Assembly: GCA_964612455.1 (NCBI GenBank)
Contig: CAZTCB010000002.1
Location: 13,809-77,808, forward strand
Direction: 5' to 3'
Length of the DNA: 64,000 bases
Origin: an uncultured Subdoligranulum sp.
GTDB taxonomy: Bacteria > Bacillota > Clostridia > Christensenellales > CAG-314
Shown: positions 28,788 to 46,400 of the stretch, piece by piece
Layout of the letters: each line of letters starts with the position of its first letter
Position numbering within the stretch: the first letter of the stretch is position 1
Notes under the pieces: generated by a model
Databases searched by the model: none
The model's input: only the letters and a program-made list of their open reading frames with translations
Told to the model about the DNA's origin: nothing
Program-made: the position numbers and the translations under genes

Positions 28788-28843
28788 CGATTTTAATCGA
28801 TATCGACTGTTGTCGATTGTGGTTAATAAATATGCTAAACGTC

Positions 28844-28875: not shown

Positions 28876-29060
28876 ATGTAAAAAGTGTTTTCGTTTCGTA
28901 TCGTGTTGTTTGTCGACCGGGCTTATTTGGTTTTAACGGGCGACTGAGATTAAATTCAGTTTGAGTACTTTTGTTATTTTTGCCGTTTTTGCTAAAAAAA
29001 CACAATATAATTTTTGACAATATTGAGTGAAAAAAACGACATTAAATTTTTAAAAAAGTA

Positions 29061-29089
29061 TTGCATTTTTGTCGTTTTTGATGTATAAT
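29061..29089 (+). promoter_or_regulatory. Candidate sigma-A promoter for cassette 2
   Basis: TTGCAT, 17 nt spacer, TATAAT. Confidence 0.45.
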
Positions 29090-29107
29090 GATAAAAACCG
29101 ATTGGTT

Positions 29108-29194
29108 GCTCGATAAATATAGATGTCGTCCGCTCCGTTAACCGATGGCAACTACCGATATTACGACGGCGACGGCAAACCTGTCAAATGGTGA
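29108..29194 (+). pseudogene. Relic 3' end of a BspA-LRR lipoprotein gene
   Basis: Translates to ..MSSAPLTDGNYRYYDGDGKPVKW*, which matches the C-termini of the three intact lipoproteins. Upstream codons carry in-frame TAA and TAG stops. Confidence 0.55.
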
Positions 29195-29285
29195 CGTCTC
29201 GGTGTCTTTATTGTATCTACGTTTCCCCGTAGTCACGCATATATTGTTGTGATGAAAACAATCAAAAAGGAAAAGGAGATGTATC

Positions 29286-30395
29286 ATGAAGAAAACAAAA
29301 ATGCAAGTCGTCACGGTCATTGTAGTTATTTTACTCTTGTTGATTGTGTCGACGTCCTTAGGTGCGAGTATTCAAAAAGCGCAGGCATATTCGCCTGATT
29401 ATAGCCCGACGCAATACTCGATTTATTACTTTTTTGACTATTATCCGACTTTGGGTAGAGACGTATTGTCTAATACGTTTGGGTATTACAGTGTTTTTTA
29501 CGACGCCCAATGGATTGACAGTGACGAATTTGACTCGCTCGTGACCAACTGGTATTTTAGCGGAATTGCATCCAATACCCTTGCATCCAATACCATAGTA
29601 ATAATCGATATAAAAACTTTTAAACCAGATGCTGATACGTTGGAGCTTTTGTTCTTAAACCTTAAGGTATTTCAGGGTTGTCAGACGATATTTATTACTC
29701 CGTATGAGGAGTACGAGTACGGTGACACTACTTTCGTATCCTGCGTAGACAAGTATTTTGTGACGTATTTTGAAGAAATAAACGTCATGATACGCCAAAT
29801 GTATGACGATAGTTATGACAACTCAGAGGGTGCATTGGCGAATAAAATGTTTTTGCTTGACAACCGTCTGGTAAATGTTACAGGATACAATCAAGGCGCA
29901 CCCATAGAGATTTTACTTGAGTCGTCGCCTTTCTTGCGTGAGCTTTTCAGTGAATATAGCGTAGGCGAAGACATGATGTATGAGAACTATACCGAATTTT
30001 TAACGGATTTGCACAATACCTATAATACGTATTTTCTTGTACACTTGGGCGGAGATGAGTTTGTAGATATTTACGACTGGGTGTTGTATAGAGGCAGTTA
30101 TTTGAGCGAAATGGAGAGTGACAGTGGTTTGAGCAGTGATGTTGCTTGTGCGGTCGGGTTTTGGAACTTAGACGGCGATTTTTACAACTTTATCTGGCGT
30201 TCGCAAATTGAAGCGTCGGCAGATTCGGAAAATAATACGGATTTACGTGCATACGTAATCGACATAGACCCGATTTTGTTAGGGACAGGTCCCGTAGTTA
30301 CGGGGTTTAGCTGGATAGCTAACAGCTATAGTCAATATTTAACGGATAGAAACGATTTGTTGGCATATTTAGACGACATAACAGGAGGAAATTAA
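29286..30395 (+). CDS. Uncharacterised membrane-anchored protein, 'family A' paralog 2
   Basis: GGAGA RBS and N-terminal TM helix. Shared motifs: IYYFFDYY, VIIDIKTFKPD, QGCQTIFIT, SSPFLR, FLVHLGGDEFVDI, VIDIDPILLGTG. Confidence 0.7.
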   Translation: MKKTKMQVVTVIVVILLLLIVSTSLGASIQKAQAYSPDYSPTQYSIYYFFDYYPTLGRDVLSNTFGYYSVFYDAQWIDSDEFDSLVTNWYFSGIASNTLASNTIVIIDIKTFKPDADTLELLFLNLKVFQGCQTIFITPYEEYEYGDTTFVSCVDKYFVTYFEEINVMIRQMYDDSYDNSEGALANKMFLLDNRLVNVTGYNQGAPIEILLESSPFLRELFSEYSVGEDMMYENYTEFLTDLHNTYNTYFLVHLGGDEFVDIYDWVLYRGSYLSEMESDSGLSSDVACAVGFWNLDGDFYNFIWRSQIEASADSENNTDLRAYVIDIDPILLGTGPVVTGFSWIANSYSQYLTDRNDLLAYLDDITGGN

Positions 30396-30397
30396 TA

Positions 30398-32002
30398 ATG
30401 AAAAATTTTAGTAAAAAAACGTGTATAGGTGTACTTTTGGTGTTGGCGGTATTGCTCGTTTTTTCTTTCGCCGGTTGCGAGCCGACGCCCGAGCCTGTGC
30501 CTAATGGTCCCGTTCAACTCGATTATCCGATAAATATAGTTGCCGTCCGTAGACTCCTGACATGGGACGAGGTGAGTCATGCTACCGGTTACGTGGTAGA
30601 ATTTAGGGGCACCGAGTATGAGACTACGGGGTGTAGTCTCGATTTGAGTTTTGATACCGGATACGGCGACGTGGAGATAAAGGTAAAAGCCAAAGGCGAC
30701 GGCACCGACTACAGTGACTCGGAGTGGACGACAAAAACGATAACGTTAAATCAAAAAGTACAAACCGGCAGCGACGAGGCGGGGTTTGAGTACACTCTCT
30801 TGGCTGACGGGAGCGGATACGAAATATCTCTAGGTACCGCCAGCATTAAAGGCGACAAAGGCGTGATTACCATTCCCGAGTATTTTGGCGACTATCCCGT
30901 CAAACGCATAGCCGACAGAATGTTTTATATCAAAGGCGCAAGTTTCCTGACCGGTGTGGGGTGCAACAATCTGACGACAGGGATAATCCTTCCCGAACAG
31001 TTGGAGAGCATAGGGGAGAGAGCATTTATGGCTTTAATCGGGATAGAGTCTATGACTATCCCCAATAGCGTCAAAGATATAGGAGAGGCTGCTTTTTACG
31101 GGTGCGTAAATCTTAAAACCGTCAAGTTGTCTAAAAATCTTAAGACAATCCCCGATAAATGTTTTATGGCTACGGGTTTGGCGCAAATCAATCTGCCAAA
31201 GTCTGTCGAAACGATAGGTGTGCAAGCTTTTGCTGCGAGTGATACGCTCGGTATGAGCGGGACTGAATCAGACCTTAAGGAATTGACAATACCGAGCAAC
31301 GTAAAAAATATAGGAAATTATGCCTTTATGGGGCGAGAAAAATTGGAAACGATAACCCTTAGTGCCGACAACTTGGAAAACTTTGGCATTAAGGTGTTTG
31401 AGGGTACTCGGTGGTATGAAAAACGCGGTGACGGATTGGTCATCCTTTACGGGGTGTTGCTTGGCTACAAGGGTACCGTTCAGTCGGGCTATGTATTGAC
31501 TCTCCCGAGTAGCGTCAAAGTAATAGCGTCTATGGGGCTATCTGTCAGCGGTATAAAAAAGGTAATCATTCCCGACGGTGTGAGATTTGCGGGTGGCGAG
31601 CGTATCTTCGGCTCAGATTTGGAGGAAGTCGTCTTGCCGTCCGACCTGACGTCGATACCGGACAAAGCGTTTTATGCTTGTAGAAGACTCGAGTCGATTT
31701 CGTTGCCGAGTACTTTGACCGATATCGGAGACGAGGCTTTCAAGAGTTCGGGATTAAAGGAGATAGTCATTCCGTCGTCGGTGGTAGAAATCGGCGAAAA
31801 TCCTTTTATCGGTTGTGATAATTTGGAGAGTATTTATTACGACGGCACGTCAAGCGAGTGGAACGCGTTGGTTAAAGAAAACAACGCCGACAATGCGGAT
31901 GCTTTTGCGTCGGCTACGATATATACGTATTCGGCAACAACTCCGACAGACAACGGCAATTACTGGTTTTACGACAGCAACGGCAATCCTATCAAATGGT
32001 AG
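30398..32002 (+). CDS. Lipoprotein with Fn3-like domain and BspA-type leucine-rich repeats (paralog 2)
   Basis: Starts 2 nt after the family A stop codon. Lipobox FAGC. LRR_5-like repeats. C-terminal YWFYDSNGNPIKW. Confidence 0.8.
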   Translation: MKNFSKKTCIGVLLVLAVLLVFSFAGCEPTPEPVPNGPVQLDYPINIVAVRRLLTWDEVSHATGYVVEFRGTEYETTGCSLDLSFDTGYGDVEIKVKAKGDGTDYSDSEWTTKTITLNQKVQTGSDEAGFEYTLLADGSGYEISLGTASIKGDKGVITIPEYFGDYPVKRIADRMFYIKGASFLTGVGCNNLTTGIILPEQLESIGERAFMALIGIESMTIPNSVKDIGEAAFYGCVNLKTVKLSKNLKTIPDKCFMATGLAQINLPKSVETIGVQAFAASDTLGMSGTESDLKELTIPSNVKNIGNYAFMGREKLETITLSADNLENFGIKVFEGTRWYEKRGDGLVILYGVLLGYKGTVQSGYVLTLPSSVKVIASMGLSVSGIKKVIIPDGVRFAGGERIFGSDLEEVVLPSDLTSIPDKAFYACRRLESISLPSTLTDIGDEAFKSSGLKEIVIPSSVVEIGENPFIGCDNLESIYYDGTSSEWNALVKENNADNADAFASATIYTYSATTPTDNGNYWFYDSNGNPIKW

Positions 32003-32023
32003 AGTCGTAGAATAACACTTTAT

Positions 32024-32069
32024 AAAAAAACCAACCCGATACGTTTTACTGTATCGGGTTGGTTTTTTT
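32024..32069. terminator. Bidirectional intrinsic terminator
   Basis: AACCAACCCGATA/TATCGGGTTGGTT stem flanked by an A-run and a T-run. Confidence 0.8.
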
Positions 32070-32144
32070 AGATAAAACCGTTGAGCGGTCGTCTCTGTCG
32101 CGATGAGCAAATTTAAACCGATAATAAAGATAAGATAATAAAGA

Positions 32145-32180
32145 TAAAAAAATATTCACCCGAAAAAAACGAGTGAATAT
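32145..32180 (-). terminator. Intrinsic terminator of rpsT
   Basis: ATATTCAC/GTGAATAT stem with a T-run on the minus strand. Confidence 0.6.
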
Positions 32181-32211
32181 TAGTTTTAAAGATATAAAAA
32201 GCGGGTGGCGA

Positions 32212-32703
32212 TTATTCCGAAACGGTATCGTCGCTCTTTTTAGTCGCTTTTTTGGTCGCCTTTTTGGCGGCAGTCTTTTTAGCGGGTGCTTTTTCGGCTG
32301 CTTTGGCGGCTTCTCTCTCTTTGCGAGCGGTGTTGCGCGACTGTTTAATCGCCTCTGCCTCTTGCGCTTTGCGTTGCGCTGCGGCTTTTTGCTCGGCTTG
32401 TTTGAGAGTCTTGACGTCGGCTTTGACAACCACGACGCCGTTTTTAAGGAGGCTGAGAGCCTTACCTATCTGGGACTTGGCGTGGTTTGCTTTGTTTTTA
32501 TGGATAACGCCCTTTGTAGCGGCGGAATCGATAGCACTGCTTGCGATGGGCAAAAGTCTCTCGGCTTCTTCCGCGTTGTTTTCGGAGATGGCGAGGTTAA
32601 ACTTTTTGACCGCGGTCTTCATTTCGCTGAGAATCATTCTATTTTGAGCTCTCTTTTTGTCGATGACCAAAACTCTTTTTTTAGCGGATTTAATATTTGG
32701 CAT
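32212..32703 (-). CDS. rpsT: 30S ribosomal protein S20 with about 75-aa Lys/Ala/Glu-rich C-terminal extension
   Basis: Canonical S20 N-terminus MPNIKSAKKRVLVIDKKRAQN...HKNKANHAKS. The ORF continues in frame to 163 aa. Confidence 0.9.
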   Translation of the reverse strand: MPNIKSAKKRVLVIDKKRAQNRMILSEMKTAVKKFNLAISENNAEEAERLLPIASSAIDSAATKGVIHKNKANHAKSQIGKALSLLKNGVVVVKADVKTLKQAEQKAAAQRKAQEAEAIKQSRNTARKEREAAKAAEKAPAKKTAAKKATKKATKKSDDTVSE

Positions 32704-32847
32704 ATAAAAATACTCCTTAACCTAATTTTCAACCATAAAATTCTACCATGTAATCTTTTTTTTGGCAAGGATTTTTTAGCAAAATTTTGGTGTTTTTTGC
32801 AATTATTTTTTTGTTCGGCATAAAATTCAGGTGACGGAGGGGGTAAT

Positions 32848-33585
32848 ATGTCGAAAAAATGCGTGGCGGTGATAGACAGCGGCGTTGGCGGATTGAGCGT
32901 ATTGAAAAGGTTGACGGAGGCGTTGCCGAGCGTCGATTTGGTGTACTTTGCCGACAACGCCAATCTGCCTTACGGAAACAAGGGCGTCGCCGAGTTGAGG
33001 GATATAGCGGCGGGCGCGGTAAAAAAGATTTCTGACAGATTTGACGCGGATTTGTTCGTCGTCGCGTGCAACACGCTGACGGCGGCGGCGATAGACGAGT
33101 TGAGAGGTAGGTTTTTAAACAAAATTTTCGTCGGGTGTGAGCCAAACCTCAACGAGCCGCTCAGATTCGGTTTTAAGGATATCCTCGTGTTGTGTACCGC
33201 ATTTACCAAAAACAGCCGCCGTATCAACGAGAGATTTGCCTCGCGTGCGGAGTTTTTGGATATGCCCGAGCTTGCCGAGTTGATAGAAAACGGCGAGTCG
33301 GACGAAAAAATTGCCGCATACGTCGCCGATAGAGCGGGAAAGGCGGCTAAGAGAGCGGATTGCGTTTCGCTCGGTTGTACTCACTATTGTCTTAAAGAAA
33401 AACTCATTTCCGACGCATTGGGATTGCCGACGTTTAGTAGTGTAGAGGGAGTCGTGAGACGTGCGGCGGCTTTGTATCGCGAAATGGGCGGAGCCGAGCA
33501 CGTAGAGGGCGAAAAAACGCGCACCATAGCTTTTTTTTCGTCGGGAAAACGGCTTGATATAGGCATTATAAAGGGGTATATGTAA
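32848..33585 (+). CDS. murI: Glutamate racemase
   Basis: DSGVGGLSVL, ACNTLT and LGCTHY motifs. Confidence 0.9.
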   Translation: MSKKCVAVIDSGVGGLSVLKRLTEALPSVDLVYFADNANLPYGNKGVAELRDIAAGAVKKISDRFDADLFVVACNTLTAAAIDELRGRFLNKIFVGCEPNLNEPLRFGFKDILVLCTAFTKNSRRINERFASRAEFLDMPELAELIENGESDEKIAAYVADRAGKAAKRADCVSLGCTHYCLKEKLISDALGLPTFSSVEGVVRRAAALYREMGGAEHVEGEKTRTIAFFSSGKRLDIGIIKGYM

Positions 33586-33623
33586 AAAAATCCAAAAAAG
33601 TTTTAAAAACTTTACCAAACCAA

Positions 33624-33652
33624 TTGAAAAATACGCAATTTTGTTGTATAGT
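33624..33652 (+). promoter_or_regulatory. Candidate sigma-A promoter for the EF-G gene
   Basis: TTGAAA, 17 nt spacer, TATAGT. Confidence 0.4.
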
Positions 33653-33682
33653 ATACTTATCACTTTTTTAGAGGTATATTGT

Positions 33683-35764
33683 ATGGCAGTATTTAATGCA
33701 AAAAACATTCGCAATATCGCCGTTATCGGACATGGCGGCGAGGGCAAGACAACGTTGATCGAGGCTATACTGTTTAATGCGAAAGCAATAGACAGACAGG
33801 GCAGAGTAGACGACGGCAACACCACCACCGACTTTGATCCGGAAGAAATTAATAAAAAGATTTCTATCAGTATGGCTATTGCCAACTGCGTATATAAAGG
33901 CACAAAGTTTAACTTTCTCGACGTCCCCGGTTTTTTTGACTTTGAGGGTGAGTTCGTACAGGCAATGGCTGTCGCCGATTGCGCGTTGGTAGTCACCGGT
34001 GCGGGCGGCAACCTCACGGTCGGTTGCGAAAAAGCTCTCGATTATTGCGTCGAGCACAGAGTGCCGACTATGATTTTCGTGTCCGACATGGACAAAGAAA
34101 ACAGCAACTACTTTACCACCGTTGAGGCTATCCAGGCAAAGTACGGTACGCGTATCGCTCCTTTGATGTTGCCTTTGATGGAGGGCGGTAAATTTAAGGG
34201 TTATGCCAATATCGCGGACGGCAAGTACTACGCCGTAGGCGCTCACGGCGACAACGGTCAGGATATCCCCGCCGCACTCGCAGCCAAGTTTGAAGAAGTA
34301 AGCGCAGTCGTGCAAGAAAAAGCAGCCGAAAGCGACGAAGAGTTAATGGAGATTTTCTTTGAAAACGGCGCGTTGGAGAAAGACCAGATAGTTAAAGGCA
34401 TCAAGGCGGGCATTTGCGACGGTAGCGCGATAGGCGTATTCGGCGGTAGCGGACTTGTCAATCAGGGCGTGTTTAACCTCATGAACAACCTCATCGGGTT
34501 TATGCCTTCTCCTGCCGACGTGAGACCGGTAAAGGCACATGACGAAAACGGCAACGAGACCGAGATAGTCGCCGACGACAAGGCTCCCGTCGTCCTCAGA
34601 GTATTCAAGACCATCGTCGACCCGTTTGTCGGTCGTATGAACCTCATCAAGGTCATGAGCGGTACGCTTAAGAGCGGCACCACTATCAAAAACGTCACCA
34701 AAGACGGCGATGAAAAAATATCGACGATTTATTTCCTAAGGGGTAAAAAACAAGAGTCAACCGATACTATCTGTGCGGGAGACATGGGCGCGCTGGCGAA
34801 ACTGTCAAACACCACTACGGGCGACACTCTTTGCGAAGGTAAAGCAGTCGTTTTGCCGGAAATCAAGATGCCTAACCCCGTCCTTAATATGGCAGTCTAT
34901 GCCACCAAGAAAGGCGACGAAGACAAGATATTTGCCGGACTGTCCAAACTGAAAGACGAGGATATCAGCTTTACCGTCGTCAAGAACATCGAGACCAACG
35001 AAATGCTCCTTTGCGGCGTCGGCGAAACCCAACTCGACATTCTCTGCCGCAAACTTAAAAACAAGTTTGGCGTAGAGGCAGTGTTGAAAGAACCTCGCAT
35101 AGCTTACCGCGAAACGATAAGAAAGATGGCTGAGGCTGAAGGTAAGCACAAGAAACAGTCGGGCGGTGCAGGTCAGTTTGGTGTTTGTTCCGTCAGGTTT
35201 GAACCGGGCGCGGCAGACGGCGAGTTTGAGTTTGTCGACGCGGTCGTCGGCGGTGCCGTACCTCGTCAGTTTATCCCCGCCGTTGAAAAAGGCTTGAGAG
35301 AAGCGATAAAAGCCGGTGTTTTGGCAGGATATCCGATGGTCAACCTCAAGGCAACTTTGTTTGACGGTAAATATCACCCCGTCGACTCTAAGGAAATCGC
35401 CTTCGTCTCTGCGGCAAAACTCGCTTACGCAGACGGTATCGCGAAAGCCGGTCCCATCTTGCTCGAACCGATTTATTCGTTAAAGATTACCGTTCCCGAG
35501 AGCTTTATGGGTGACATTCTCGGCGACATGAACAAGCGTCGCGGCAGAGTGCTCGGTATGGAGGCTGTGGGCGGCAAACAAGTCATCAGCGCAGAGTGCC
35601 CCCTCGGCGAAATCACCAAGTATGCAACCGATTTGCGTAGCATGACTCAAGGCAGAGGCAGTTACGAACTCGAATTTGCACGCTATGAAGAAGTCCCCGC
35701 AACCAGCGTACCCAAGATTATCGAGGACGCCAAAAAGTTTGCGGCTGAGAAAGACAACGCATAA
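33683..35764 (+). CDS. fusA: Elongation factor G family GTPase (stand-alone copy, not in an str operon)
   Basis: GHGGEGKTT G1 motif, DVPG G3 motif, EF-G domains II-V (HKKQSGGAGQFG). Confidence 0.9.
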   Translation: MAVFNAKNIRNIAVIGHGGEGKTTLIEAILFNAKAIDRQGRVDDGNTTTDFDPEEINKKISISMAIANCVYKGTKFNFLDVPGFFDFEGEFVQAMAVADCALVVTGAGGNLTVGCEKALDYCVEHRVPTMIFVSDMDKENSNYFTTVEAIQAKYGTRIAPLMLPLMEGGKFKGYANIADGKYYAVGAHGDNGQDIPAALAAKFEEVSAVVQEKAAESDEELMEIFFENGALEKDQIVKGIKAGICDGSAIGVFGGSGLVNQGVFNLMNNLIGFMPSPADVRPVKAHDENGNETEIVADDKAPVVLRVFKTIVDPFVGRMNLIKVMSGTLKSGTTIKNVTKDGDEKISTIYFLRGKKQESTDTICAGDMGALAKLSNTTTGDTLCEGKAVVLPEIKMPNPVLNMAVYATKKGDEDKIFAGLSKLKDEDISFTVVKNIETNEMLLCGVGETQLDILCRKLKNKFGVEAVLKEPRIAYRETIRKMAEAEGKHKKQSGGAGQFGVCSVRFEPGAADGEFEFVDAVVGGAVPRQFIPAVEKGLREAIKAGVLAGYPMVNLKATLFDGKYHPVDSKEIAFVSAAKLAYADGIAKAGPILLEPIYSLKITVPESFMGDILGDMNKRRGRVLGMEAVGGKQVISAECPLGEITKYATDLRSMTQGRGSYELEFARYEEVPATSVPKIIEDAKKFAAEKDNA

Positions 35765-35815
35765 TTTAATATTTTTTATCGCAACAGTCCCGATGTTTTT
35801 GAACACGGGACTGTT
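35728..35815. repeat. 88-bp direct repeat, left copy (EF-G 3' end plus terminator hairpin)
   Basis: Identical base-for-base to 38876-38963 by hand alignment. Confidence 0.95.
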
Positions 35816-35876
35816 GTCGAATAGGGGCAAAATATCACTACTCATTTGTTATTAAAAAAATAAAAGGAGAATAGCA

Positions 35877-36932
35877 ATGAAATTTAAAAGTTTAATTCTT
35901 GCAACGATGATTGTGGTAACGTTGTTTGCCGGTGTCATTGTTGTCGGTATGCCGCAAAATGAAGCAAAAGCTCTTTCGTCGGAATACCACGGTGAGCCGG
36001 ATACTATTTATTACTTTTATGATTTTTATCAGTCTATCGAAGAAATGTCGTTGATGACGGCATTTGTCGGATACAATGTAGTTTTCGACCATAATGGCTC
36101 GTTGGGATCCGATTTTACTCAGTTGGTAAATCAGAATTATTTCGATAATTTTGGTGACAATTGCGTTGTTGTTATAGATATAAAGTCATTTTTGCCTGAT
36201 TGTAATATTTTAATGCAATTGTTTATGGAACTTAAAATGGAACAAGGGTGTACGACTATATTTGTAACCTTGTTTGATAAAACGGATTTTGAAAATCAAT
36301 CGTTTTTAACTTACTTGGATATGTACTTTAAGAGCGATGCTAACAGATTGTATGATTTATGTGATGGCTCCGTCGAGTATTTGATAAATAATAACGGAGG
36401 ATTGAATAATACAACTATATTGATAGATAGAAATCTGGTAGATATTAACACGCACTACGGTGCTCCCATTAGCGTGTTATGTGAGGATTCGTTTTTTTTA
36501 AAGCAATTGTTGTCCACCATAGGTGAGGCTTTGTCACTCGGAGAAGATTATGACGTTGAATATCAATTATGCAATTATCGCAATATAAGACTGCTTGTGC
36601 ATTACGGCACTTGTCAATTTGTGGATATTATTAGCTGGAATACTTATACTGCGCATACGATAGACGCATTGGAAGAAAATGTAAACATATCATGGAATTA
36701 TATATGCGGTATCGGGGCTTGGTATCTGAATCAACATTTTTATGATTTCTTGCTTGATGCTCAAACAAAAATTACTTTGCCGGTGTTTGTCATAGAAGTC
36801 GATCCGATTGTGTTTGGCAATGGTTTGACTGCTATCGTGTACGGTGCATGTGAAGATTGCGATACAAGTTACAACGATGGCAAAACTTTCTTGGATGCGC
36901 TGTACGAAATCTTATATCCTACCGGGGAATAA
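35877..36932 (+). CDS. Uncharacterised membrane-anchored protein, 'family A' paralog 3
   Basis: AAGGAG RBS and N-terminal TM helix. Shared motifs: IYYFYDFY, VVIDIKSFLPD, QGCTTIFVT, DSFFLK, LLVHYGTCQFVDI, VIEVDPIVFGNG. Confidence 0.7.
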   Translation: MKFKSLILATMIVVTLFAGVIVVGMPQNEAKALSSEYHGEPDTIYYFYDFYQSIEEMSLMTAFVGYNVVFDHNGSLGSDFTQLVNQNYFDNFGDNCVVVIDIKSFLPDCNILMQLFMELKMEQGCTTIFVTLFDKTDFENQSFLTYLDMYFKSDANRLYDLCDGSVEYLINNNGGLNNTTILIDRNLVDINTHYGAPISVLCEDSFFLKQLLSTIGEALSLGEDYDVEYQLCNYRNIRLLVHYGTCQFVDIISWNTYTAHTIDALEENVNISWNYICGIGAWYLNQHFYDFLLDAQTKITLPVFVIEVDPIVFGNGLTAIVYGACEDCDTSYNDGKTFLDALYEILYPTGE

Positions 36933-36934
36933 TT

Positions 36935-38776
36935 ATGAAAAAGAGATTTTTGTTATTTATTGCGGTTGTTTGTTTTGTGGCTCTTTTGGGTTGTCTTGTG
37001 GCGTGTGCCGAAAAAGAACCCGACGATGATCCGAGAGCTTTGTCTTTGGCAGCACCTGAAAAGCTCAGCGCAGAGGGGAGAGTTGTTATATGGAAGGCGG
37101 TCGAAAATGCCGTCGGATACGTCGTCAATTTTGAAAGAAACGATTATGAAACGACGTCAACTACGTTTAATTTGTTTTTTAGCGATGCCGAGGGAGAATT
37201 AGAACTCTCTGTTAGAGCGATAGGCGACGGTATTAACTATACAAATTCCGATTGGTCGACTACGCACGTTACGTTGAGCAAAAAGGTGACTCAAGCACGC
37301 GATGATTCGGGGCTATTGTATACGCTTTTGTCGGATAGAGAGGGATATGAGGTTTCGTATGGTACTCCTGATAGTAGAAAAGGTAAAATCGTTATTCCTG
37401 ACTTTTTTGCCGACCTTCCCGTTACGCGAATCGCCGATTATGGCTTTGGTGATTTTAGGACAGACGTCAATCCGCTTAAAGAAATAAATTGCAATACGGT
37501 GACGACCGGGGTTGTCTTTCCCAAGTATCTCAAAACTATAGGCGTCGGGGCATTTTATTGCTGTGTAAGGCTTGCCGACGTCGGAGCTATTCCTGATACT
37601 GTAACGGAAATTTGCGGAGGAGCTTTTAGCGGTTGTACGCATTTGACAAGTATTGCGCTACCTAAAGGTTTGAAAGAAATTCCCGCAAATTGTTTTAAGA
37701 ATACGGCACTCGCCGAGATTGTTTTGCCGGAGCAACTGGAACGCATATGCGATCAGGCGTTTTATTGTCAATATCTGACACCTACCAATGAACATTGTTA
37801 TTCTGAGCTTTCAGAGGTAGTTATACCGGAGTCGGTGCAATATATCGGTATCGGTGCGTTTTATGGGCGCGAAAAGCTAAAGACGATAACAATGTCAGAC
37901 AAAGTGGATTTAAGAAGAGGAGCTTTAGACAAGACGCTGTGGTATGAAAATCAACCGAACGGGTGTGTGTATTTAGGTACCATTTTGTATTCTTACAAAG
38001 GCGAGATGCCCGAAAACTGTGAGCTGACGATAGATTTTGCTACCACTAAAGCAATAGGAGATATGGCGTTTGCGGGGCAAAAAAATCTTAAGAAGATATA
38101 CGTAGAGGATGGCGTAAAGTTTTTGGGTGAATGTACGTTTTCTTCCTGCTCGTCGTTGAGCGAGGTGCGGTTGCCGTCGGACATGACGTCGATACTTTTG
38201 GGAATGTTCGGCGTTTGCGAAAGTCTTAAGTCGATAGAACTGCCAAAAACAGTATCGTTTATTGATATCGGAGCTTTTAGCGGTTCCGGGTTAGAAACCA
38301 TTTATATTCCGTCCGGCGAAATAGAAGACAGGGCTTTTATTGGCTGTGTGGCATTAAAAGAAGCAGTATTGGCGGACGGTGTCGAGTATTTAGGGAGAGA
38401 AGCGTTTAAAGATTGTACTGCCTTGACGAAAGTAGTTTTGCCTGATACGTTAAAAAGTATAGGAGTGCTTGCTTTTTCGGGGTGTAACTCTCTCGAGACG
38501 GTTAAGATTCCGTCGTCGGTGATTGCTCTCGGCGCCGAGCCTTTTGCATCGTGTGAAAAATTGACAGAGGTTTACTATTGCGGTAATTTCGAACAGTGGG
38601 AGACTCTTTTGTATAGCAACAACAAAGATAAAAAAGATGCTTTTTCATCGGCAACGGTTTATTTTTATTCCGCAACGCAACCGTCTAATAATGGTAACTA
38701 TTGGCATTACGACGGTAGTGGCAATAGTATAAAATGGAATGGTCCTGCGGACGATACAATCGATAAAGAGGATTGA
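36935..38776 (+). CDS. Lipoprotein with Fn3-like domain and BspA-type leucine-rich repeats (paralog 3)
   Basis: Starts 2 nt after the family A stop codon. Lipobox LVAC. LRR_5-like repeats. C-terminal YWHYDGSGNSIKW. Confidence 0.8.
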   Translation: MKKRFLLFIAVVCFVALLGCLVACAEKEPDDDPRALSLAAPEKLSAEGRVVIWKAVENAVGYVVNFERNDYETTSTTFNLFFSDAEGELELSVRAIGDGINYTNSDWSTTHVTLSKKVTQARDDSGLLYTLLSDREGYEVSYGTPDSRKGKIVIPDFFADLPVTRIADYGFGDFRTDVNPLKEINCNTVTTGVVFPKYLKTIGVGAFYCCVRLADVGAIPDTVTEICGGAFSGCTHLTSIALPKGLKEIPANCFKNTALAEIVLPEQLERICDQAFYCQYLTPTNEHCYSELSEVVIPESVQYIGIGAFYGREKLKTITMSDKVDLRRGALDKTLWYENQPNGCVYLGTILYSYKGEMPENCELTIDFATTKAIGDMAFAGQKNLKKIYVEDGVKFLGECTFSSCSSLSEVRLPSDMTSILLGMFGVCESLKSIELPKTVSFIDIGAFSGSGLETIYIPSGEIEDRAFIGCVALKEAVLADGVEYLGREAFKDCTALTKVVLPDTLKSIGVLAFSGCNSLETVKIPSSVIALGAEPFASCEKLTEVYYCGNFEQWETLLYSNNKDKKDAFSSATVYFYSATQPSNNGNYWHYDGSGNSIKWNGPADDTIDKED

Positions 38777-38836
38777 TTTATCTTTCGTAATCTCGTCGGT
38801 AACGGGAAAGAAATAACGGCAGTGAAATAAGTGCGG

Positions 38837-38888
38837 CTCAATAATGAAAAAAAATTAAAAGATTTTGTTATATCTCGCCAAAAAGTTT
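38837..38888. repeat. 52-bp module-end repeat, copy A
   Basis: Matches 43246-43297 with 2 mismatches. Its last 13 nt (CGCCAAAAAGTTT) are also the first 13 nt of the 88-bp repeat. Confidence 0.9.
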
Positions 38889-38963
38889 GCGGCTGAGAAA
38901 GACAACGCATAATTTAATATTTTTTATCGCAACAGTCCCGATGTTTTTGAACACGGGACTGTT
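38876..38963. repeat. 88-bp direct repeat, right copy (orphan EF-G 3' end plus complete terminator)
   Basis: Identical to 35728-35815. Here the hairpin is followed by a T-run. Confidence 0.95.
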
Positions 38964-39211
38964 TTTTACCTTTTTAAATACGTCTTTCTAAAAAAAATAG
39001 GTCGTTTCGTCATATTGTAATAAATAATACGCAGAAACCGGAAGTGTGAGAATAATATCATGATTATTTTATCAGATATTCACCTATCTTTTCTTTCTGA
39101 ATTGTCATGTATATAGAGAGAAAAATAATATGGAAAAAGACGCGACTAAAATACGAAAGGGTGCTTTGGTCGAAATATAATTTATTGCTGACAACGGAGG
39201 TAAAAGAAAAA

Positions 39212-41611
39212 ATGAAAAGAAAATTGTTAGTGGTTGTATTTTTATTGCTGAGTTTACTCTCGACGGTGTTACTGTCGTCGTGTAGCGGCAGAGTGACGGT
39301 GACGCTTGAAACCAATACCACGGCAGGGACGGAAAAGGTAAAGTTTAACAAGGGTGAGACAATCGGAGATTTGCTTACGCCGACCAAAGTCGGTTTTGAG
39401 TTTGACGGATGGTATTACGACCAATTGTTTAAAAATCCAGTTAGCTCTACGGACGAGGTCGTTAAATGCACCGTATACGCCAAGTGGATTCCGACCGTGT
39501 ATGAAAAAATAGCGGTAGGAAGCACGGCTTGTGCCGCCATATACGTAGACGGCGGCTTGTACACATGGGGTACAAATGATAAAGGCGTTTTGGGTACGGG
39601 AGATTACTACTCGTCTAAGGAGCCTGTCAGGATAATGCCGGACAAGACGTTTGTTCATGTCGCCGCTGACAATTCTTTATTTGTGGCTATAGATAGTGAC
39701 GGACAGTTGTATCAATGGGGGGCTATTTGCTACGGGTTTTTAAGTGGGTATGAGTGCGATGAGTTTAATCTGCCGACGCCGATGGCGTCTGATGTGAGAT
39801 TTAAACAAGCAGACGTTGATGACGGCAATGGTTTGAGCGGGGTTATTTTGGCTCTTGACGTAGACGGCAATATCTGGAGTTGGGGAGATAACCAGTTCAA
39901 ACAGCTCGGCATGTCCGGTGTGGCTTACTCTAAAACTCCCCTAAAAATCGATTCGGATTATAAATTTACAAAGGTTTCTGTAGGTTCGCAAAATTGCGCT
40001 GCCATTACTACAAAGGGTATCCTGTATACCTGGGGCGCCAACGGTGTCGGTTTAGGTTCTTCGGTAAAGCTGACTTTTTCGTCCGTAAATCTTTTGTCGA
40101 TGTATAAAGTGGATATCGGCGGCGAAAAAGTAAAAGACGTTTCTTTGGGTACTTTATACGGGCTTGCTTTAAGCAAAAGCGGTACCGTGTATAGTTGGGG
40201 ACAAAACAACAAGGGTGAGATCGGCAACGGTACGGTTAATTCGCGAGACGTCTACAATAGCGTGGTTTATCCTGAGGCGATATGGACGTCGGGAGAAAAA
40301 ATAGCAAGGGTAAAAGCACAAGGTAGCACCTCTTTGGTTATTGCCGAGTCAGGTAACGTATACGTATTTGGGGCAATGCTTTCGGTAATGGCGGAATCCG
40401 AGGAACTTTCCATCCGAACGGTGCCGTACAGGCTATATGACGACGCAAGGTATACTTACGTCGCGTGTTCTTTGTCTGGCGGCGTATTGTTGACTATGAC
40501 GGATGACGGCGAGTGTTTTTCATCGGGAAACAATGCTTATATGATGATTGGCAACGGAGAGAGCTACGCCACGACCGAACCTACGAAAGCCACTACCGAC
40601 ATGTCGATAGAGTACTACAATACGACAAACGGTAATACGGTGTTTATCATCGATACCGACGGACAACTGTGGGGCTACGGTAAAAACGATTACGGTCAGT
40701 TGGGAGACGGAACAACTACCGATCGTACGAAACACACCAAGATACTCGACGGAGTAAAGGTCAAGGATTTTTACGAATATAACGGTAATTGCGCATGTAT
40801 AGACGTCGACGGAAACCTGTATGTTTGGGGAAGAAATAAAAACGGCGTACTCGGTACGGGCAATACGGATATGATACTTACGCCTACAAAAATAACGGAA
40901 AGTCGTTTTAAATTTATTAATTTGAGGGTGTTCGGTAGCGCCATAGATATATACGGCAACGTGTGGGCGTGCGGGACTCCTACCAGAGAGGGTTTTATTG
41001 GCAATAAAAACGAAACTTTCGGTTGGCAAAAAGTGACGGACGGCGTAACGTTTGAGTATGCGGATGTTACTGCCGGCGACTTAATCGGACTCGATAAAAA
41101 CGGTGACGTATATTGTCTCGACGCAAATAAATATTCAGAATTGACTAAACTCGATTACGGTACAAAGTTTTGTAAAATCGTTCGCGCCGGTTCGACTACC
41201 ATGTTGCTGTCTACGGACGGTAGACTGTACGGTTACGGCAGTAACTATTACGGCATATTAAATTCCGATGAAGACACCGTGTCTGCCGCCGCGCCGAGTT
41301 TGATAGCCGAGGGCGTAACTGAGGTATATACGGACGGAAAGTCGGCAGTGATAAAAAAAGACGGTAAATACTATGGATGCGGATATTATTTCGGAATCCT
41401 GTTGGGCACTAACTACGTCAAAGACGTAGAGGATTACACACCGATAGCAATAAGCGTAAACGTTAAAAAGGTATTCTGTTCTTTTAGCGGTAGAGCGCTG
41501 TTTGTCTTGTCGGATGATAATCGATTGTATGGATGGGGGGTGATAGGAGAAGATATTAAAGAGTGGAATACTATGTGTTCTGATATTTATAGGTATAGAA
41601 TTAGTTTTTAA
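39212..41611 (+). CDS. RCC1-repeat (beta-propeller) lipoprotein with N-terminal Listeria/Bacteroides-type repeat
   Basis: Lipobox LSSC. GFEFDGWYYD...VYAKW repeat. Multiple WG.N..GQLG-type blades (WGDNQFKQLG, WGQNNKGEIGNG, GKNDYGQLGDGTT, WGRNKNGVLGTG). Confidence 0.85.
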   Translation: MKRKLLVVVFLLLSLLSTVLLSSCSGRVTVTLETNTTAGTEKVKFNKGETIGDLLTPTKVGFEFDGWYYDQLFKNPVSSTDEVVKCTVYAKWIPTVYEKIAVGSTACAAIYVDGGLYTWGTNDKGVLGTGDYYSSKEPVRIMPDKTFVHVAADNSLFVAIDSDGQLYQWGAICYGFLSGYECDEFNLPTPMASDVRFKQADVDDGNGLSGVILALDVDGNIWSWGDNQFKQLGMSGVAYSKTPLKIDSDYKFTKVSVGSQNCAAITTKGILYTWGANGVGLGSSVKLTFSSVNLLSMYKVDIGGEKVKDVSLGTLYGLALSKSGTVYSWGQNNKGEIGNGTVNSRDVYNSVVYPEAIWTSGEKIARVKAQGSTSLVIAESGNVYVFGAMLSVMAESEELSIRTVPYRLYDDARYTYVACSLSGGVLLTMTDDGECFSSGNNAYMMIGNGESYATTEPTKATTDMSIEYYNTTNGNTVFIIDTDGQLWGYGKNDYGQLGDGTTTDRTKHTKILDGVKVKDFYEYNGNCACIDVDGNLYVWGRNKNGVLGTGNTDMILTPTKITESRFKFINLRVFGSAIDIYGNVWACGTPTREGFIGNKNETFGWQKVTDGVTFEYADVTAGDLIGLDKNGDVYCLDANKYSELTKLDYGTKFCKIVRAGSTTMLLSTDGRLYGYGSNYYGILNSDEDTVSAAAPSLIAEGVTEVYTDGKSAVIKKDGKYYGCGYYFGILLGTNYVKDVEDYTPIAISVNVKKVFCSFSGRALFVLSDDNRLYGWGVIGEDIKEWNTMCSDIYRYRISF

Positions 41612-41642
41612 TTTTAAGAAGTGCAAAAAGGAGAAAGTTATT

Positions 41643-43241
41643 ATGAAAAAAGGTTTGTTTAAAACAATGTCTGCATTAATGTTGGTTTTAATGCTGTTAA
41701 TGATGACGGAAAGTATCTCTGCCGTAGTTTTTGCCGATTCGCCGGTAAATATTTCTATATCCGTTGACGAGGATTTTGGCGATTTGGATATTTTTACTAT
41801 GACGCACGCAAGTAAAAGCGCGGATTATATTTTTACCTGTATTTACGACAGGTTGATAGAGCTCGACAGTGATGGCAATTTTGTTCCGTCGCTTGTGACG
41901 TCATGGCAAGTCATACCCGATCCGAATGCGGAGGGGTATGGCAATCCGATAAATATCTCCGATTACGAATTTATTGAGTTATCTGAAGAGTTGTCAGATG
42001 AAATCATTGACGGTTGGTCTGCCGAGCCCGAGGATTTAACGTTTTTAAGTCCTGACGAAATGGAGTTTTTTGACGGACCGGGTACTTTGATTCTGGAGTT
42101 GACGTTACGGCAGAACGTAGTATTTTACGACGGTGCTGATTTTAACGCTCATAAATTAGCTGAGTTTATAGATTTTACGCAAACTTGTTCGTCGGATACG
42201 TTGATATACAAACAGTGGGAGTGTGTAACTCCACGCATCGTTTCCGACTATGTTTTGAGATTATATTTTGATTTTAGTAACGTATCTTACGGATACTATG
42301 ATTTTTTATATGGTCTTACGTCGCCAATAGCAAGCATAGCCGATATAAGGGAAGAATCGCAAGTGGACGAAGATTGCTCGATGGGGGCTTATTGTTTGCG
42401 TTCTGTTGAGGAGTCTCAATACGTTGAGATTGGTAAAAATGACAATTGGTGGGATACGAGAGGGGTTTATGCCGACACGTTGACTTTTTATTATACAAAC
42501 GTAAATGCGTCAAGCTATAGATTGTACGATATTAATGTTATGTCGGGTTCGGATTGTTATGCAATGGATTTAAATTCGGCTGACACGGTTGCGAACAATC
42601 CGATTATTATTAAAGATTGTCGACAGGACGTATCTTCACATGCTATTCTTTCGGTGATTAGTTATCCCGGTATGGCAGCTGCTGCAGCTGCTGATGCCGA
42701 TATTCGTCTCGTGACGGAGTCTCCTGATTATTGGATATATTACGATATATGTGCAATAGCTCCGATAGATATGTCGTGGGTAGGAGACGTTTCGATATTG
42801 TGTCCGGATTCGTTTACTTGTCGCTACGTAGCCGAGGCGGTGGATACGTTTTTGAGAGAATTAAATATAAACTCGTCGTTAAATATAGTACCTACGGAGG
42901 AGTTTGACACTGAAATCGAAACGGGTTCTTACGACTTTATAATAAAAGAGGTAGAAATGGAGTATATAAACTCAAATTATCTTGAGTTTTACGGATTTAC
43001 GGGAGACAATAACGCAGATGATATCATGGATTTGGCGAAAAAGAGCAAAACAAGAAATGCATATTACAATATGCAGTTGCAGACGCAAGCGTACATGTTT
43101 TCTGAGAGATACGTCGGAAATTTCGGGTGGACTACCAAGGAAATTGTATATGGAGGGGACGTTATTGACGGTTTGATTGTTCCCGATTGTTTTTGCCCGT
43201 ATGGTAACGCCGGTAGAATAGATTTCAGGTGGGTACGTTAG
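41643..43241 (+). CDS. Secreted solute-binding-protein family 5-like protein (orphan, no ABC partners nearby)
   Basis: Signal peptide. IYDRLIELDSDGNFVPSLVTSWQV and LTLRQNVVFYDGADFNA resemble SBP_bac_5 N-terminal motifs. Confidence 0.55.
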   Translation: MKKGLFKTMSALMLVLMLLMMTESISAVVFADSPVNISISVDEDFGDLDIFTMTHASKSADYIFTCIYDRLIELDSDGNFVPSLVTSWQVIPDPNAEGYGNPINISDYEFIELSEELSDEIIDGWSAEPEDLTFLSPDEMEFFDGPGTLILELTLRQNVVFYDGADFNAHKLAEFIDFTQTCSSDTLIYKQWECVTPRIVSDYVLRLYFDFSNVSYGYYDFLYGLTSPIASIADIREESQVDEDCSMGAYCLRSVEESQYVEIGKNDNWWDTRGVYADTLTFYYTNVNASSYRLYDINVMSGSDCYAMDLNSADTVANNPIIIKDCRQDVSSHAILSVISYPGMAAAAAADADIRLVTESPDYWIYYDICAIAPIDMSWVGDVSILCPDSFTCRYVAEAVDTFLRELNINSSLNIVPTEEFDTEIETGSYDFIIKEVEMEYINSNYLEFYGFTGDNNADDIMDLAKKSKTRNAYYNMQLQTQAYMFSERYVGNFGWTTKEIVYGGDVIDGLIVPDCFCPYGNAGRIDFRWVR

Positions 43242-43245
43242 AAAT

Positions 43246-43297
43246 CTCAATAATGAAAAAATATTAAAAGATTTTGTTTTATCTCGCCAAAAAGTTT
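43246..43297. repeat. 52-bp module-end repeat, copy B
   Basis: Begins 4 nt after the SBP-like stop codon. 50/52 identity to 38837-38888. Confidence 0.9.
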
Positions 43298-43426
43298 CAC
43301 GACGAGTGAGTAACAATAAATCCACAAAAATTTTAAAATTTGTGGATAACTCGGTGGATAAGTGCATAACTCCTTTGATTTTTCACGTTCTTTTGTTAAA
43401 ATAGGGCTATTAAAGCTGATTTTTTA

Positions 43427-43466
43427 AAAAAAATAAGAGGCAGACAAATTTTGTCTGCCTCTTTTA
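43427..43466. terminator. Bidirectional intrinsic terminator (nifJ end)
   Basis: AAGAGGCAGACAAA/TTTGTCTGCCTCTT stem flanked by an A-run and a T-run. Confidence 0.8.
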
Positions 43467-43478
43467 TCTTGTCAAAAA

Positions 43479-46400
43479 TCAGTCGTTTTTAGCGAGATTT
43501 TCGTACTTGGCAAGTCTCTCTTTGGAGTCTTTTTCGGTCTTGACAAAGAGTTGTTCCGCTACTTCGGGCATTGTCTTGAGCAAGCTCGTGTAGCGAGTTT
43601 CTTTGCGTAAAAACTCCTGATAGTCGCCCGTCGGTTTTTTGCTGTCGAGAGTGAAGGGGTTTTTACCTTCGTCGGCGAGAGACGGGTTGTAACGATAGAG
43701 TTGCCAGTAACCGCAATCAACTGCCTCTTTAATGACAGCCTGAGGATTGCTCATATCGATACCGTGGTTGATGCAGGGGGCATAAGCAATGACGAGAGAC
43801 GGTCCCGGATAAGCTTCTGCCTCTTTGAGGGCTTTGACGACTTGTTCGTAATCCGCACCCATACCTACCTGTGCGACGTAAACGTAGCCGTAACTCATAG
43901 CCATCATGCCGAGGTCTTTCTTCTTTGTTCTCTTGCCTGCCGCCGCAAACTTGGCAACCGCGCCCGTCGGAGACGCTTTAGACGCCTGACCGCCGGTGTT
44001 GGAGTAAACTTCGGTATCGAGGACGAGAACGTTGACGTCTTCGCCCTGAGCGAGGACGTGATCCAATCCGCCGTAACCGATATCGTACGCCCAACCGTCG
44101 CCGCCGAAAATCCAGAAGGATTTTTTGACAAAGCAGTCTTCCATCTTGCGGAGTTCTTCTGCTTTTTCGCCTTTCATCGTAGCGAGAACGGTTTTTAGAT
44201 CCTCGGATGCTTTCTTGCTGCCTTCCGCGTCGAGTTTGTTTTCAATCCATGCGTTTGCCGCCGCGACAAATTTGTCGTCCGCGCCTTCGGCAATTATTTC
44301 TTTGAGGAGTCTTTCGACGTTGTCTCTGCGTTGCTGATAGGCAATCTGCATACCAAAGCCGAATTCACTGTTGTCTTCAAACAGACTGTTTGCCCATGCG
44401 GGACCGTGACCTTGCTTGTTGACGGTGTAGGGGCAGGTAGGAGCGCTGCCGCCGTAGATAGAAGAGCAACCCGTCGCGTTGGCGATAATCATTCTGTCGC
44501 CAAAGAGTTGTGTTACGAGTTTGACGTAAGGAGTTTCGCCGCAACCCGCGCAAGCGCCGCTGTATTCAAACAAAGGTTGTTTAAACTGGCTGCTCTTTGC
44601 GTTGAGTTTCATACCGCTTTCGACTTGGTCGACTTTTTCGGAGAACTCAAAGTTGGCAACTTCGTCGACTTTCTCTGCGGGAACCATGACGAGGGCTTTT
44701 TCTTTGGCGATACATACGTTGGCGCAGCTGCCGCAACCGGAGCAGTCCAACGGAGAAACCTGAATACGATATTTAGCACCTTTGACGCCGTTGGCGGCTT
44801 TAGTGACAAACGTCTCGGGTACGACGGTGTTTTCGTCGATTAATACGGGGCGGATTGCCGCGTGCGGGCAGACCATCGAGCAACGGTTGCACTGTATGCA
44901 CTTGGTTGCGTCCCATACGGGGATATTGACGGCGATACCGCGTTTTTCAAAACGGGTGGTAGAAGTAGGTACTACGCCTGCGGGATTGAAAGCGGATACG
45001 GGGAGCTCGTCGCCTTTCTGGTCGAGAATGGGTTTGATAAAGTTGACGAAATAAGGATCGTCGCTGCTCTTTGCCATATCTGCGCCGGTGGTCGCGGTTT
45101 TCCAGCTGTCGGGAACGTTGACTTTAATGAGTCCCTTGACGGCATTGTCGACTGCCGCAAAGTTGCAATCGAGTACTTTTTGACCTTTCTTGCCGTAGGT
45201 CTTGACGATTGCCTTCTTCATATACTCTTCTGCTTGCTCGTAAGGTATAATGTTGGCGAGTTTAAAGAAAGCCGCCTGCATGACCATATTGGTGGATTTT
45301 GCCGAGCCTGCTTCCTTAGCAAGTTTCAAACCGTCGATGATGTAAAATTGAAGGTTTTTGTTGGCAATGTCGTTTTTGACCTTGGCGGGGAGTTTTTCGT
45401 CCAATTCTTCCACCGACCAGTTGCAGTTGAGGAGGAAAGTGCCGCCTTGACGAGCGTCCGCCAACATGTCGTAACGCGTAATGTAGCTCTGGTTGTGGCA
45501 GGCGATAAACTCCGCGTTGTCGATGAGATAGCTGGATTGAATGGGGGTTTTTCCGAAACGCAGGTGGCTGATGGTCAAGCCGCCGGATTTTTTGCTGTCG
45601 TAGGAGAAATACCCTTGAGCGTACAAATCGGTGTGGTCACCGATAATCTTGATGCTGTTTTTGTTGGCGCCGACGGTACCGTCGCTGCCGAGACCGTAAA
45701 ACTTGCAACGAGTCGTCCCCTCGGGAGCAACGTCGATTTTTTCGTCGACGGGGAGAGAGGTAAACGTAACGTCGTCGTTGATACCGACCGTAAAGTGGTT
45801 TTTCGGATTGGTTTGTTGAAGGTTTTTATAGATGGCGAGTATCATAGAAGGCGTAAACTCTTTGCTACCCATACCGTATCTGCCGCCCACGACGGTGTAT
45901 TTGTCCGCCACGCCGTGCTCTTTGAGGCAAGCGACCACGTCGAGATAGAAAGGTTCGCCTAAACTGCCGGCTTCTTTCGTGCGGTCCATGACGGCGATAT
46001 GTTTGACCGTCGCGGGTAATGCCTGAATAAATCTTTCGGAGGGGAAAGGTCTGTAAAGTCTTACTTTAAGAACGCCGACTTTCTTGCCTTGCTTGACGAG
46101 ATAATTGACGGTTTCTTCGCAAGCTTCCGCGCCGCTACCCATGATAACGATGACGTCCGTTGCGTCGGGTGCGCCTACGTAATCGACGAGGTTGTACTTT
46201 CTGCCGGTGAGCTCACCGACTTTTTGCATATATTTTTCTACGATTGCGGGCGTTGCGTCGTACAAACCGTTGCAAGCCTCTCTGTTCTGGAAGTAAATAT
46301 CGGGGTTTTGAGCGGTACCTTGGAGTTGCGGATGCTCGGGGTTGAGTGCGCGTGCTCTAAACTCGTCTACGTACTTTCTGTCGAGCAGTTTGTCCATGTC

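Follow-up and report, generated by a model that had tools for sequence, protein, structure and literature searches.

In Streptococcus thermophilus, cis-mobilizable elements (CIMEs) and the elements ICESt1 and ICESt3 integrate at the 3' end of fda; CIMEs themselves carry no recombinase. Duplications and amplifications at short repeats, as well as Campbell-type insertions made by a single crossover, are also known processes. Here, we compare such systems with a locus of an uncultured Subdoligranulum sp. (assembly GCA_964612455.1, contig CAZTCB010000002.1, forward strand 13,809-77,808; this whole stretch of 64,000 nt is referred to as the window). At this locus, a 3060-bp unit that we call cassette 3 lies immediately downstream of a gene for elongation factor G (EF-G), between two copies of an 88-nt sequence that includes the 3' end of the EF-G gene. 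The cassette holds an uncharacterised gene, famA, and a gene for a leucine-rich repeat (LRR) lipoprotein. We show that it is a strain-variable islet, and we trace its right junction to two sequences that are both present in an allele lacking it.

Foreign genes can also be stacked beside a conserved anchor gene by homology-facilitated illegitimate recombination, an established route according to PMC5361080 and papers that it cites (Prudhomme 2002, de Vries & Wackernagel 2002, Meier & Wackernagel 2003). We propose, with a probability of about 0.5, that unequal or illegitimate recombination at a 13-nt microhomology joined two alternative alleles of a variable slot downstream of EF-G, thereby stacking the cassettes of both.

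A strain-variable islet between the EF-G hairpin and its T-run

The two 88-nt copies (Table 1) are direct repeats with 100% identity and an offset of 3148 bp, as established from the window sequence and a repeat search; a perfect match of this length within 64 kb cannot be due to chance. The left copy includes the final 37 nt of the EF-G open reading frame (ORF), with the stop codon at 35762-35764, and extends to the end of a hairpin with the stem AACAGTCCCG/CGGGACTGTT (folding energy -19.2 kcal/mol, z-score -5.4). Downstream of the right copy, this GC-rich hairpin is followed by the U-tract UUUUUUACCUUUUU, as in a complete intrinsic terminator, while the left copy provides the hairpin alone. 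A simple terminator scanner, which allows loops of at most 8 nt, missed both hairpins. An earlier reading of the DNA, made from the sequence only, had reported a perfect repeat bracketing cassette 3 and a T-run after the right copy only, and both statements hold.

To compare strains, we used Logan contigs (k=31, assembled from public read sets) retrieved through exact-protein look-ups. Three strains of the species were available, two occupied (the strain of read set SRR10277277, and strain S of SRR25400526/27/31, which comes from a different study) and one empty (SRR10277276). In SRR10277277, contig L109 is 100% identical to window positions 27743-35757 and ends exactly 30 nt (k-1) inside the left 88-mer, and contig L110 (3120 bp) is 100% identical to 35786-38905, a stretch that comprises the cassette and, on either side, 30 nt of the 88-mer. 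Both cassette junctions, the one between the hairpin and GTCGAA and the one between the sequences termed Z and core below, are therefore present in an independent assembly.

The empty allele was found in contig L108 (SRR10277276, 8083 bp), which carries the racemase gene, EF-G, the RCC1 gene, the solute-binding protein (SBP) gene and the end of the PFOR gene. Window positions 32674-35815 align with L108 1-3142 at 98.9% identity and positions 38876-43905 align with L108 3055-8083 at 95.4%, with one 88-mer as the overlap of the two alignments. In place of the two copies and the intervening 3060 bp of the window, L108 has a single 88-mer followed by the T-run. The sequence-only reading had pictured a discrete unit of insertion or deletion bounded by the 88-bp repeat, with an empty site made up of EF-G, the terminator and then the sequence from 38964 onward; L108 has precisely this arrangement. 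These data show that cassette 3 is a real strain-variable islet of 3.06 kb, located between the EF-G hairpin and the T-run of that same hairpin.

In strain S, the cassette is 95.7% identical to that of the window (about 4% diverged) and has the same left junction (L105). Divergence between the two occupied strains is about 4% for the cassette and about 6% for the RCC1 region. All three strains are roughly equidistant (5.3-6.4%), so that the comparison is compatible with either polarity of the change, insertion or deletion. The last 30 nt of the repeat in strain S carry a T in both contexts, one followed by GTCGAA (L105) and the other by TTTATC and the RCC1 region (L111), and the window carries a G in both copies. 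Contigs L105, L106 and L107 are identical across their overlaps, and three differences private to L108 distinguish its single 88-mer from the occupied strains. The shared single-nucleotide pattern argues for concerted evolution through gene conversion, or for recurrent loss and regain of the cassette via the repeat, and not for one very recent event; a mixture of alleles within the strain S samples is another possible source of it. The perfect identity of the copies had been taken as a sign of either a recent event or ongoing gene conversion. The pattern in strain S favours gene conversion, and a recent event as the sole explanation now appears unlikely.

A chimeric junction and a proposed origin of the repeats

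A second repeat, missing from the sequence-only reading, is interleaved with the first. It is 52 nt long, consisting of a 39-nt segment, Z, and a 13-nt core, CGCCAAAAAGTTT; its two copies differ by 2 mismatches, and 13 nt of one of them lie within the right 88-mer. With up to one mismatch allowed, the window contains exactly three copies of the core. Copy A lies inside EF-G between a left flank X and a right flank Y (75 nt, Y75, which completes the 88-mer). Copy C lies between Z and a right flank W, and presumably represents the resident flank on the right side of the variable slot. Copy B, at the right end of cassette 3, joins Z to Y: its left half is that of copy C and its right half that of copy A, so that it is a chimera of these two, which share exactly the 13 nt of the core. 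The empty allele L108 has copy A as well as copy C, the two parental copies. Thus, the Z-core-Y junction is a new joint formed at a short microhomology shared by two sequences that already existed, as is characteristic of illegitimate or unequal recombination. A polymorphism in Z is common to copies and strains.

In the scenario that we propose, the region downstream of EF-G would be a replaceable slot, with the EF-G hairpin (core and Y75) as its left flank and Z-core-W, just before the PFOR terminator, as its right flank; in sequence, the slot would be bounded by CGGGACTGTT on the left and by CTCAATAATG on the right. One allele, E, holds the RCC1 and SBP genes and is the one observed in L108. 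A second, hypothetical allele, H, would hold cassette 3 in the same place, with the spacer of cassette 3 expected to run into TTATATCTCGCCAAAAAGTTTCACGACGAG. The 13 nt shared by the EF-G 3' end and the right flank would be fortuitous. A single crossover between incoming H-type DNA and a resident E chromosome, with EF-G homology as the anchor, would then join H up to Z-core with E from core-Y onward; looping out at two cores followed by a single homologous crossover would be an equivalent route. The reciprocal join, X-core-W, would read ATCGAGGACGCCAAAAAGTTTCACGACGAG. One crossover at the core would therefore account for the stacked cassettes, for 88-nt and 52-nt repeats that overlap by exactly the core, and for the T-run at the right hairpin only, and it would need no element-encoded or site-specific recombinase. 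Once formed, the 88-bp repeats may permit precise RecA-type deletion back to the E allele, as well as gene conversion that keeps the copies identical.

The same arrangement could be produced by site-specific integration in trans, in the manner of CIMEs or integron cassettes. Cassette 3, and perhaps the RCC1-SBP unit too, would then be non-autonomous, with Z-core-Y as attP, tandem integration at the 13-nt core and the 88-mers as attL and attR. The three core contexts fit the order B-O-P', P-O-P' and P-O-B' exactly, the flanking repeat is a single copy in the empty allele, the unit lacks a recombinase as cis-mobilizable elements do, and repeated excision and integration would yield identical copies within each strain. 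However, the tandem reading requires a naive site X-core-W, in which EF-G would end in KKFHDE, and this conflicts with the native tail of the protein. The EF-G C terminus DAKKFAAEK(D/E)NA is conserved in relatives: the repeat encodes AAEKDNA, and relatives without cassettes end in AAEKENA or AAERENG. Because the tail is conserved where no cassette is present, we regard it as native, and it follows that no element brought a substitute gene end and that W was not displaced from the end of EF-G. In addition, the DNA of the Y-encoded tail shows about the same divergence from the sister species as the remainder of EF-G. A Pfam scan of about 46 window ORFs of at least 150 aa, which covered the apparent genes, revealed housekeeping and surface proteins and no recombinase or transposase domain, in cassette 3 or elsewhere; the absence of a recombinase from the 3.06 kb, asserted earlier, thus extends to the scanned ORFs. 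No inverted core-type sites were seen, no inverted-repeat pair at the cassette ends was reported by a repeat search of 30-45 kb, and Z-core folds no better than shuffled sequences (z-scores +0.8 and -0.2), without the structure or the integrase expected of an integron. A transposon or insertion sequence fits no better, given the lack of a transposase domain and of an inverted pair at the ends and a duplication as long as 88 nt. The 88-mer (Y75), Z, W and the left end of the cassette were not found outside this species among 120 related loci, the hairpin and Z-core had no match in viral contigs, and the cassette DNA had none in plasmid and phage collections, so that no att core recurs elsewhere in the material searched. 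With a native tail, a motif not found outside this species and a right junction that is chimeric at the core, the earlier view of an attL/attR-type element carrying a replacement EF-G 3' end is not supported, and integration in trans in the broader sense is rather unlikely.

A similar pair in another Clostridia species bears on the same question. Contig L115 carries a famA gene (41% identical) and an LRR_5 gene inside a perfect 37-nt direct repeat, AACACGACGGTTTTTAATTTGTTTAAAACTATTTTAA, with copies at 7526-7562 and 11826-11862, 4300 bp apart. The repeat comprises the loop, 3' arm and T-run of the terminator of the upstream gene plus 20 nt; Logan contig L117 begins 30 nt into the left copy, and no third partial copy of the 37-nt repeat was found. 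A second cassette of the same family within a perfect repeat at a terminator speaks for integration in trans, but the 88-nt and 37-nt repeats share neither sequence nor a rule of position, so different integrases would be needed and a common site-specific integrase is disfavoured. Alternatively, famA-LRR modules might be moved by a so far undescribed, sequence-independent mechanism into the terminators of expressed housekeeping genes, duplicating a long target (88 nt here, 37 nt in L115) and using ends of the Z-core type as joining sites. We consider this quite improbable; if true, uncultured gut Clostridia would have a new platform of cassettes for varying their surface, served by a recombinase in trans or by none.

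Three further explanations were weighed. The occupied allele may be ancestral and the empty strain may have lost the cassette by recombination between the repeats. A length of 88 bp is sufficient for RecA-type deletion, and two occupied strains and an empty one at about equal distances leave the polarity open. A history of deletion only, however, does not explain the origin of the Z-core-Y chimera, which must post-date copies A and C, and the three private differences of the L108 88-mer suggest a long separate history, although they are not decisive; we regard this history as unlikely. Tandem duplication followed by replacement, in which an unequal exchange between sister chromosomes at two 13-nt cores duplicates the segment from core to Z (about 7.6 kb) and cassette 3 then replaces the interior of the first copy, relies on the same chimeric junction. 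The empty allele does carry both parental cores, and the window contains another tandem duplication, of 173 bp and including a tRNA 3' end. Yet at least two events and a donor with cassette 3 between Y75 and Z are needed, which is the H allele again, and cassette 3 and the RCC1-SBP unit retain no similarity to each other; this course of events is quite improbable. Finally, the contig could be an artefact in which an empty chromosome and a free 3148-bp circle sharing the 88-mer were threaded together, or, as a variant, a mixture of strains. In favour of this are the perfect repeat and the fact that the integrated and the circular form give identical k=31 graphs. Against it, genes for replication or recombination are missing from the 3.1-kb unit, the left junction and the branching recur in strain S (L105, L111), about 4% diverged and from another study, and reads, if they are 150 nt long, would span the 88-nt repeat. 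We therefore consider an episome or artefact very improbable.

Several points weigh against recombination at the core as the origin of the stacked cassettes. The H allele, with cassette 3 directly followed by Z-core-W, was not observed in the three strains, and for this reason we limit the probability of the scenario to about one half. The 13-nt identity between the two flanks is a modest coincidence that the scenario has to accept, and the X/Z/Y/W pattern is formally the same as that of tandem site-specific integration. The recurrence in L115 hints at a recurrent, perhaps dedicated, mechanism. The search for recombinase domains covered about 46 ORFs of the 64-kb window, and an enzyme could act in trans from elsewhere; the k=31 graph, as noted, is the same for an integrated cassette and for a free circle with an empty chromosome; and both the RecA dependence and the read-through transcription described below are inferred. 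On balance, we read the footprint as genome plasticity of an ordinary kind, for which an unusually complete set of junctions is preserved.

Genes of the islet and its surroundings

The EF-G gene lies after the S20 gene (minus strand) and a racemase gene, not amid ribosomal-protein genes. Cassette 3 has a GC content of 40%, compared to 51% for EF-G, and the entire interval from EF-G to PFOR is low in GC. No sigma-70-like site was matched on the plus strand between 35600 and the famA start, the 61-nt leader of the cassette included. Because the left hairpin lacks a U-tract and the leader lacks such a match, the left hairpin is probably non-terminating, and transcription from EF-G would read into the cassette and stop at the right copy.

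Table 1. Features of the EF-G locus in window coordinates
Feature	Position	Strand	Remarks
EF-G family gene, 693 aa	33683..35764	+	Pfam EFG_IV, GTP_EFTU, EFG_C and others; NCBIfam NF009381 'elongation factor G', 849.6 bits (cut-off 583)
Left 88-nt copy	35728..35815	+	13-nt core and Y75: EF-G 3' end, stop codon, spacer, hairpin; followed by GTCGAATAGG, no T-run
Core copy A (X-core-Y)	35728..35740	+	CGCCAAAAAGTTT, inside EF-G
Left hairpin without U-tract	35783..35815	+	stem extendable by pairing with cassette sequence, -26.5 kcal/mol (predicted fold)
Cassette 3, 3060 bp	35816..38875	+	occupied allele only, absent from L108; 61-nt leader, famA, LRR lipoprotein gene, 60-nt spacer, 39-nt Z
famA, 351 aa	35877..36932	+	hydrophobic N terminus; no Pfam or NCBIfam match
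BspA-type LRR_5 protein gene, 613 aa	36935..38776	+	Pfam LRR_5, 3.2e-69; lipobox-like LVAC near the N terminus
Z-core copy B (Z-core-Y)	38837..38888	+	left half as in copy C, right half as in EF-G copy A; present in Logan contig L110
Right 88-nt copy	38876..38963	+	followed by TTTTACCTTTTT; complete intrinsic terminator
RCC1-repeat / Flg_new surface protein gene	39212..41611	+	Pfam; first gene past the repeat in empty and occupied alleles
SBP_bac_5 solute-binding-like protein gene	41643..43241	+	Pfam; deleted in strain S
Z-core copy C (Z-core-W)	43246..43297	+	starts 5 nt past the SBP stop codon; also in the empty allele L108

A search with famA returned 140 representative clusters at E<=1e-3, all with proteins of about 340-375 aa, and famA appears to be a fast-evolving, uncharacterised family. 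The gene downstream of famA is an LRR_5 gene in L115 and L116; in L119 and L120, it is cut by the contig end and carries no annotation. In other species, famA-LRR pairs lie between unrelated housekeeping genes. The paralogous cassettes of the window are old: famA is 30% identical to its paralogue in cassette 2, and the LRR protein of cassette 3 is 32-34% identical to those of the other LRR genes. Recent copying between cassettes was considered and rejected on the grounds that the paralogues are just 30-34% identical at the protein level.

The organism is an uncultured member of the Clostridia, with 'Subdoligranulum sp. CAG:314' and Christensenellales MAGs among its relatives. An exact-protein look-up with the EF-G of the window itself gave no match, and a genome scan with EF-G returned only other species, with nucleotide identities of at most 83%; these are too diverged for an empty-site comparison and were used for synteny and for the native C terminus. 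A metagenome scan with the hairpin, written as a pattern with an N loop, found unrelated terminators only, and an Rfam search over 27-47 kb gave nothing relevant. In the sister species, EF-G is 96% identical in protein and 83% in DNA, and the gene order is DnaX-YbaB-RecR, followed further on by tRNAs-DegV-S20-racemase-EF-G. The famA/LRR blocks that the window has beside RecR, DegV and EF-G are missing there, and the blocks are for that reason read as lineage-specific additions. Some strains of the sister species (L098:12085-13010, also L099 and L103) carry about 900 bp of inserted DNA that separates the EF-G stop codon from the terminator, with a helix-turn-helix regulator gene (minus strand) and a gene for a 160-aa lipoprotein and no long flanking repeat. 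In most strains of the sister species, a prophage (terminase, portal, capsid) lies a few kb past EF-G. In more distant relatives, EF-G is followed by a ClpC-like gene, in one case together with an LRR_5 fragment. Such differences between species, and those of strain S described below, are in line with a variable slot after EF-G. W, or the region upstream of RCC1, was tried as an orthologue of the sequence downstream of EF-G in the sister species; the similarity was marginal (33/500 and 12/500 shuffles reached the score) and was not used.

In strain S (L111:1-2822, SRR25400531), three ORFs take the place of the intact RCC1 gene, and nearly all of the SBP gene is missing, the equivalents of window positions 41673 and 43185 being joined; the accessory interval is decaying in this strain. 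Between the SBP gene and the PFOR terminator, a palindrome, ATCCACAAAAATTTTAAAATTTGTGGAT, at 43310-43360 overlaps the DnaA-box-like motifs TGTGGATAA and GGTGGATAAG; no GC-skew switch was seen at this position.

Other features were noted in the window. The 12-mer GACTGTTGTCGA occurs at 35809-35820, across the left junction of cassette 3, and at 28805-28816, directly past the stop codon of DegV, at the place of the cassette 2 insertion relative to the sister species; the sharing may be at chance level (4/100 shuffles). Just upstream of cassette 2, at 29130-29195, lies an orphan remnant of an LRR C terminus ending in NYRYYDGDGKPVKW and a stop codon, which looks like the trace of a neighbouring cassette in a donor tandem array. 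Tandem arrays of this kind are found in L112-L114, whose contig start equals the contig end within the conserved LRR 3' end. The 173-bp tandem duplication mentioned above spans 17086-17415; its copies are 93-100% identical and include the last 21 nt of tRNA-Glu (17395-17469, minus strand), leaving a truncated tRNA 3' fragment at about 17222-17242. From RecR to a tRNA-Cys/Gly pair (22228-27469), a low-GC block (32-37%) encodes a trypsin-like protease, two 370-aa proteins without a family match and another LRR_5 lipoprotein; in the sister species, this place is taken by acetyltransferase, hydrolase and AraC genes. A 1795-aa LRR_5 protein is encoded at 52052-57439 and contains internal 300-nt repeats (54216-54515 and 55608-55907) that are 70% identical.

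Significance and comparison with known systems

The locus provides a clean natural case of surface-protein genes being gained or lost within a housekeeping transcription unit in an uncultured lineage of gut Clostridia. The evidence comprises the two parental sequences, the junction that is a chimera of them, an allele without the cassette and indications that identity between the repeats is maintained. If recombination at the microhomology is indeed its origin, stacked cassettes with att-like repeats need no integrase, which calls for caution in pipelines that search for islands or att sites. Slots close to the terminators of highly expressed genes would then be expression platforms for variable, adhesin-like LRR proteins. 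A broader survey is worthwhile in view of the second cassette of the same family, which lies within a perfect repeat in another species.

Among described systems, integron cassettes are likewise promoterless, arrayed past an expressed region and each terminated by a similar short sequence. Here, in contrast, there are only two cassettes, and neither intI nor an imperfect palindrome of the attC type nor a GTTRRRY core is present. With CIMEs and genomic islands, the locus shares direct repeats that include the 3' end of a housekeeping gene, the lack of an internal recombinase, hybrid internal sites of the kind formed by tandem accretion and an empty site with one copy. It differs from them in that no cognate integrase or integrative and conjugative element was seen, the repeat is native and not element-borne, the third site shares 13 nt only, and the motif was found nowhere else in the material searched. 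Duplications at short repeats and Campbell-type insertions also produce a chimeric junction of two resident sequences, with flanking repeats that represent the shared segment and can collapse by homologous recombination. Unlike in those cases, the two units here hold different genes, which requires two alleles or a later replacement.

The products of homology-facilitated illegitimate recombination, as covered in PMC5361080, include foreign DNA trapped beside an anchor homology in transformable bacteria, the type VI secretion effector-immunity arrays of Vibrio cholerae, for which the route is a proposed model, and orphan arrays at the 3' end of Rhs genes. As in these products, the genes at the EF-G locus are stacked directly downstream of a conserved anchor, with long homology on one side and a microhomology joint on the other; older cassettes are displaced downstream, and no integrase is involved. 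In the present case, the donor allele was not observed. Unlike in the described products, the illegitimate joint is situated before the anchor gene ends, so that the outcome is an 88-nt duplication and not a deletion or displacement.

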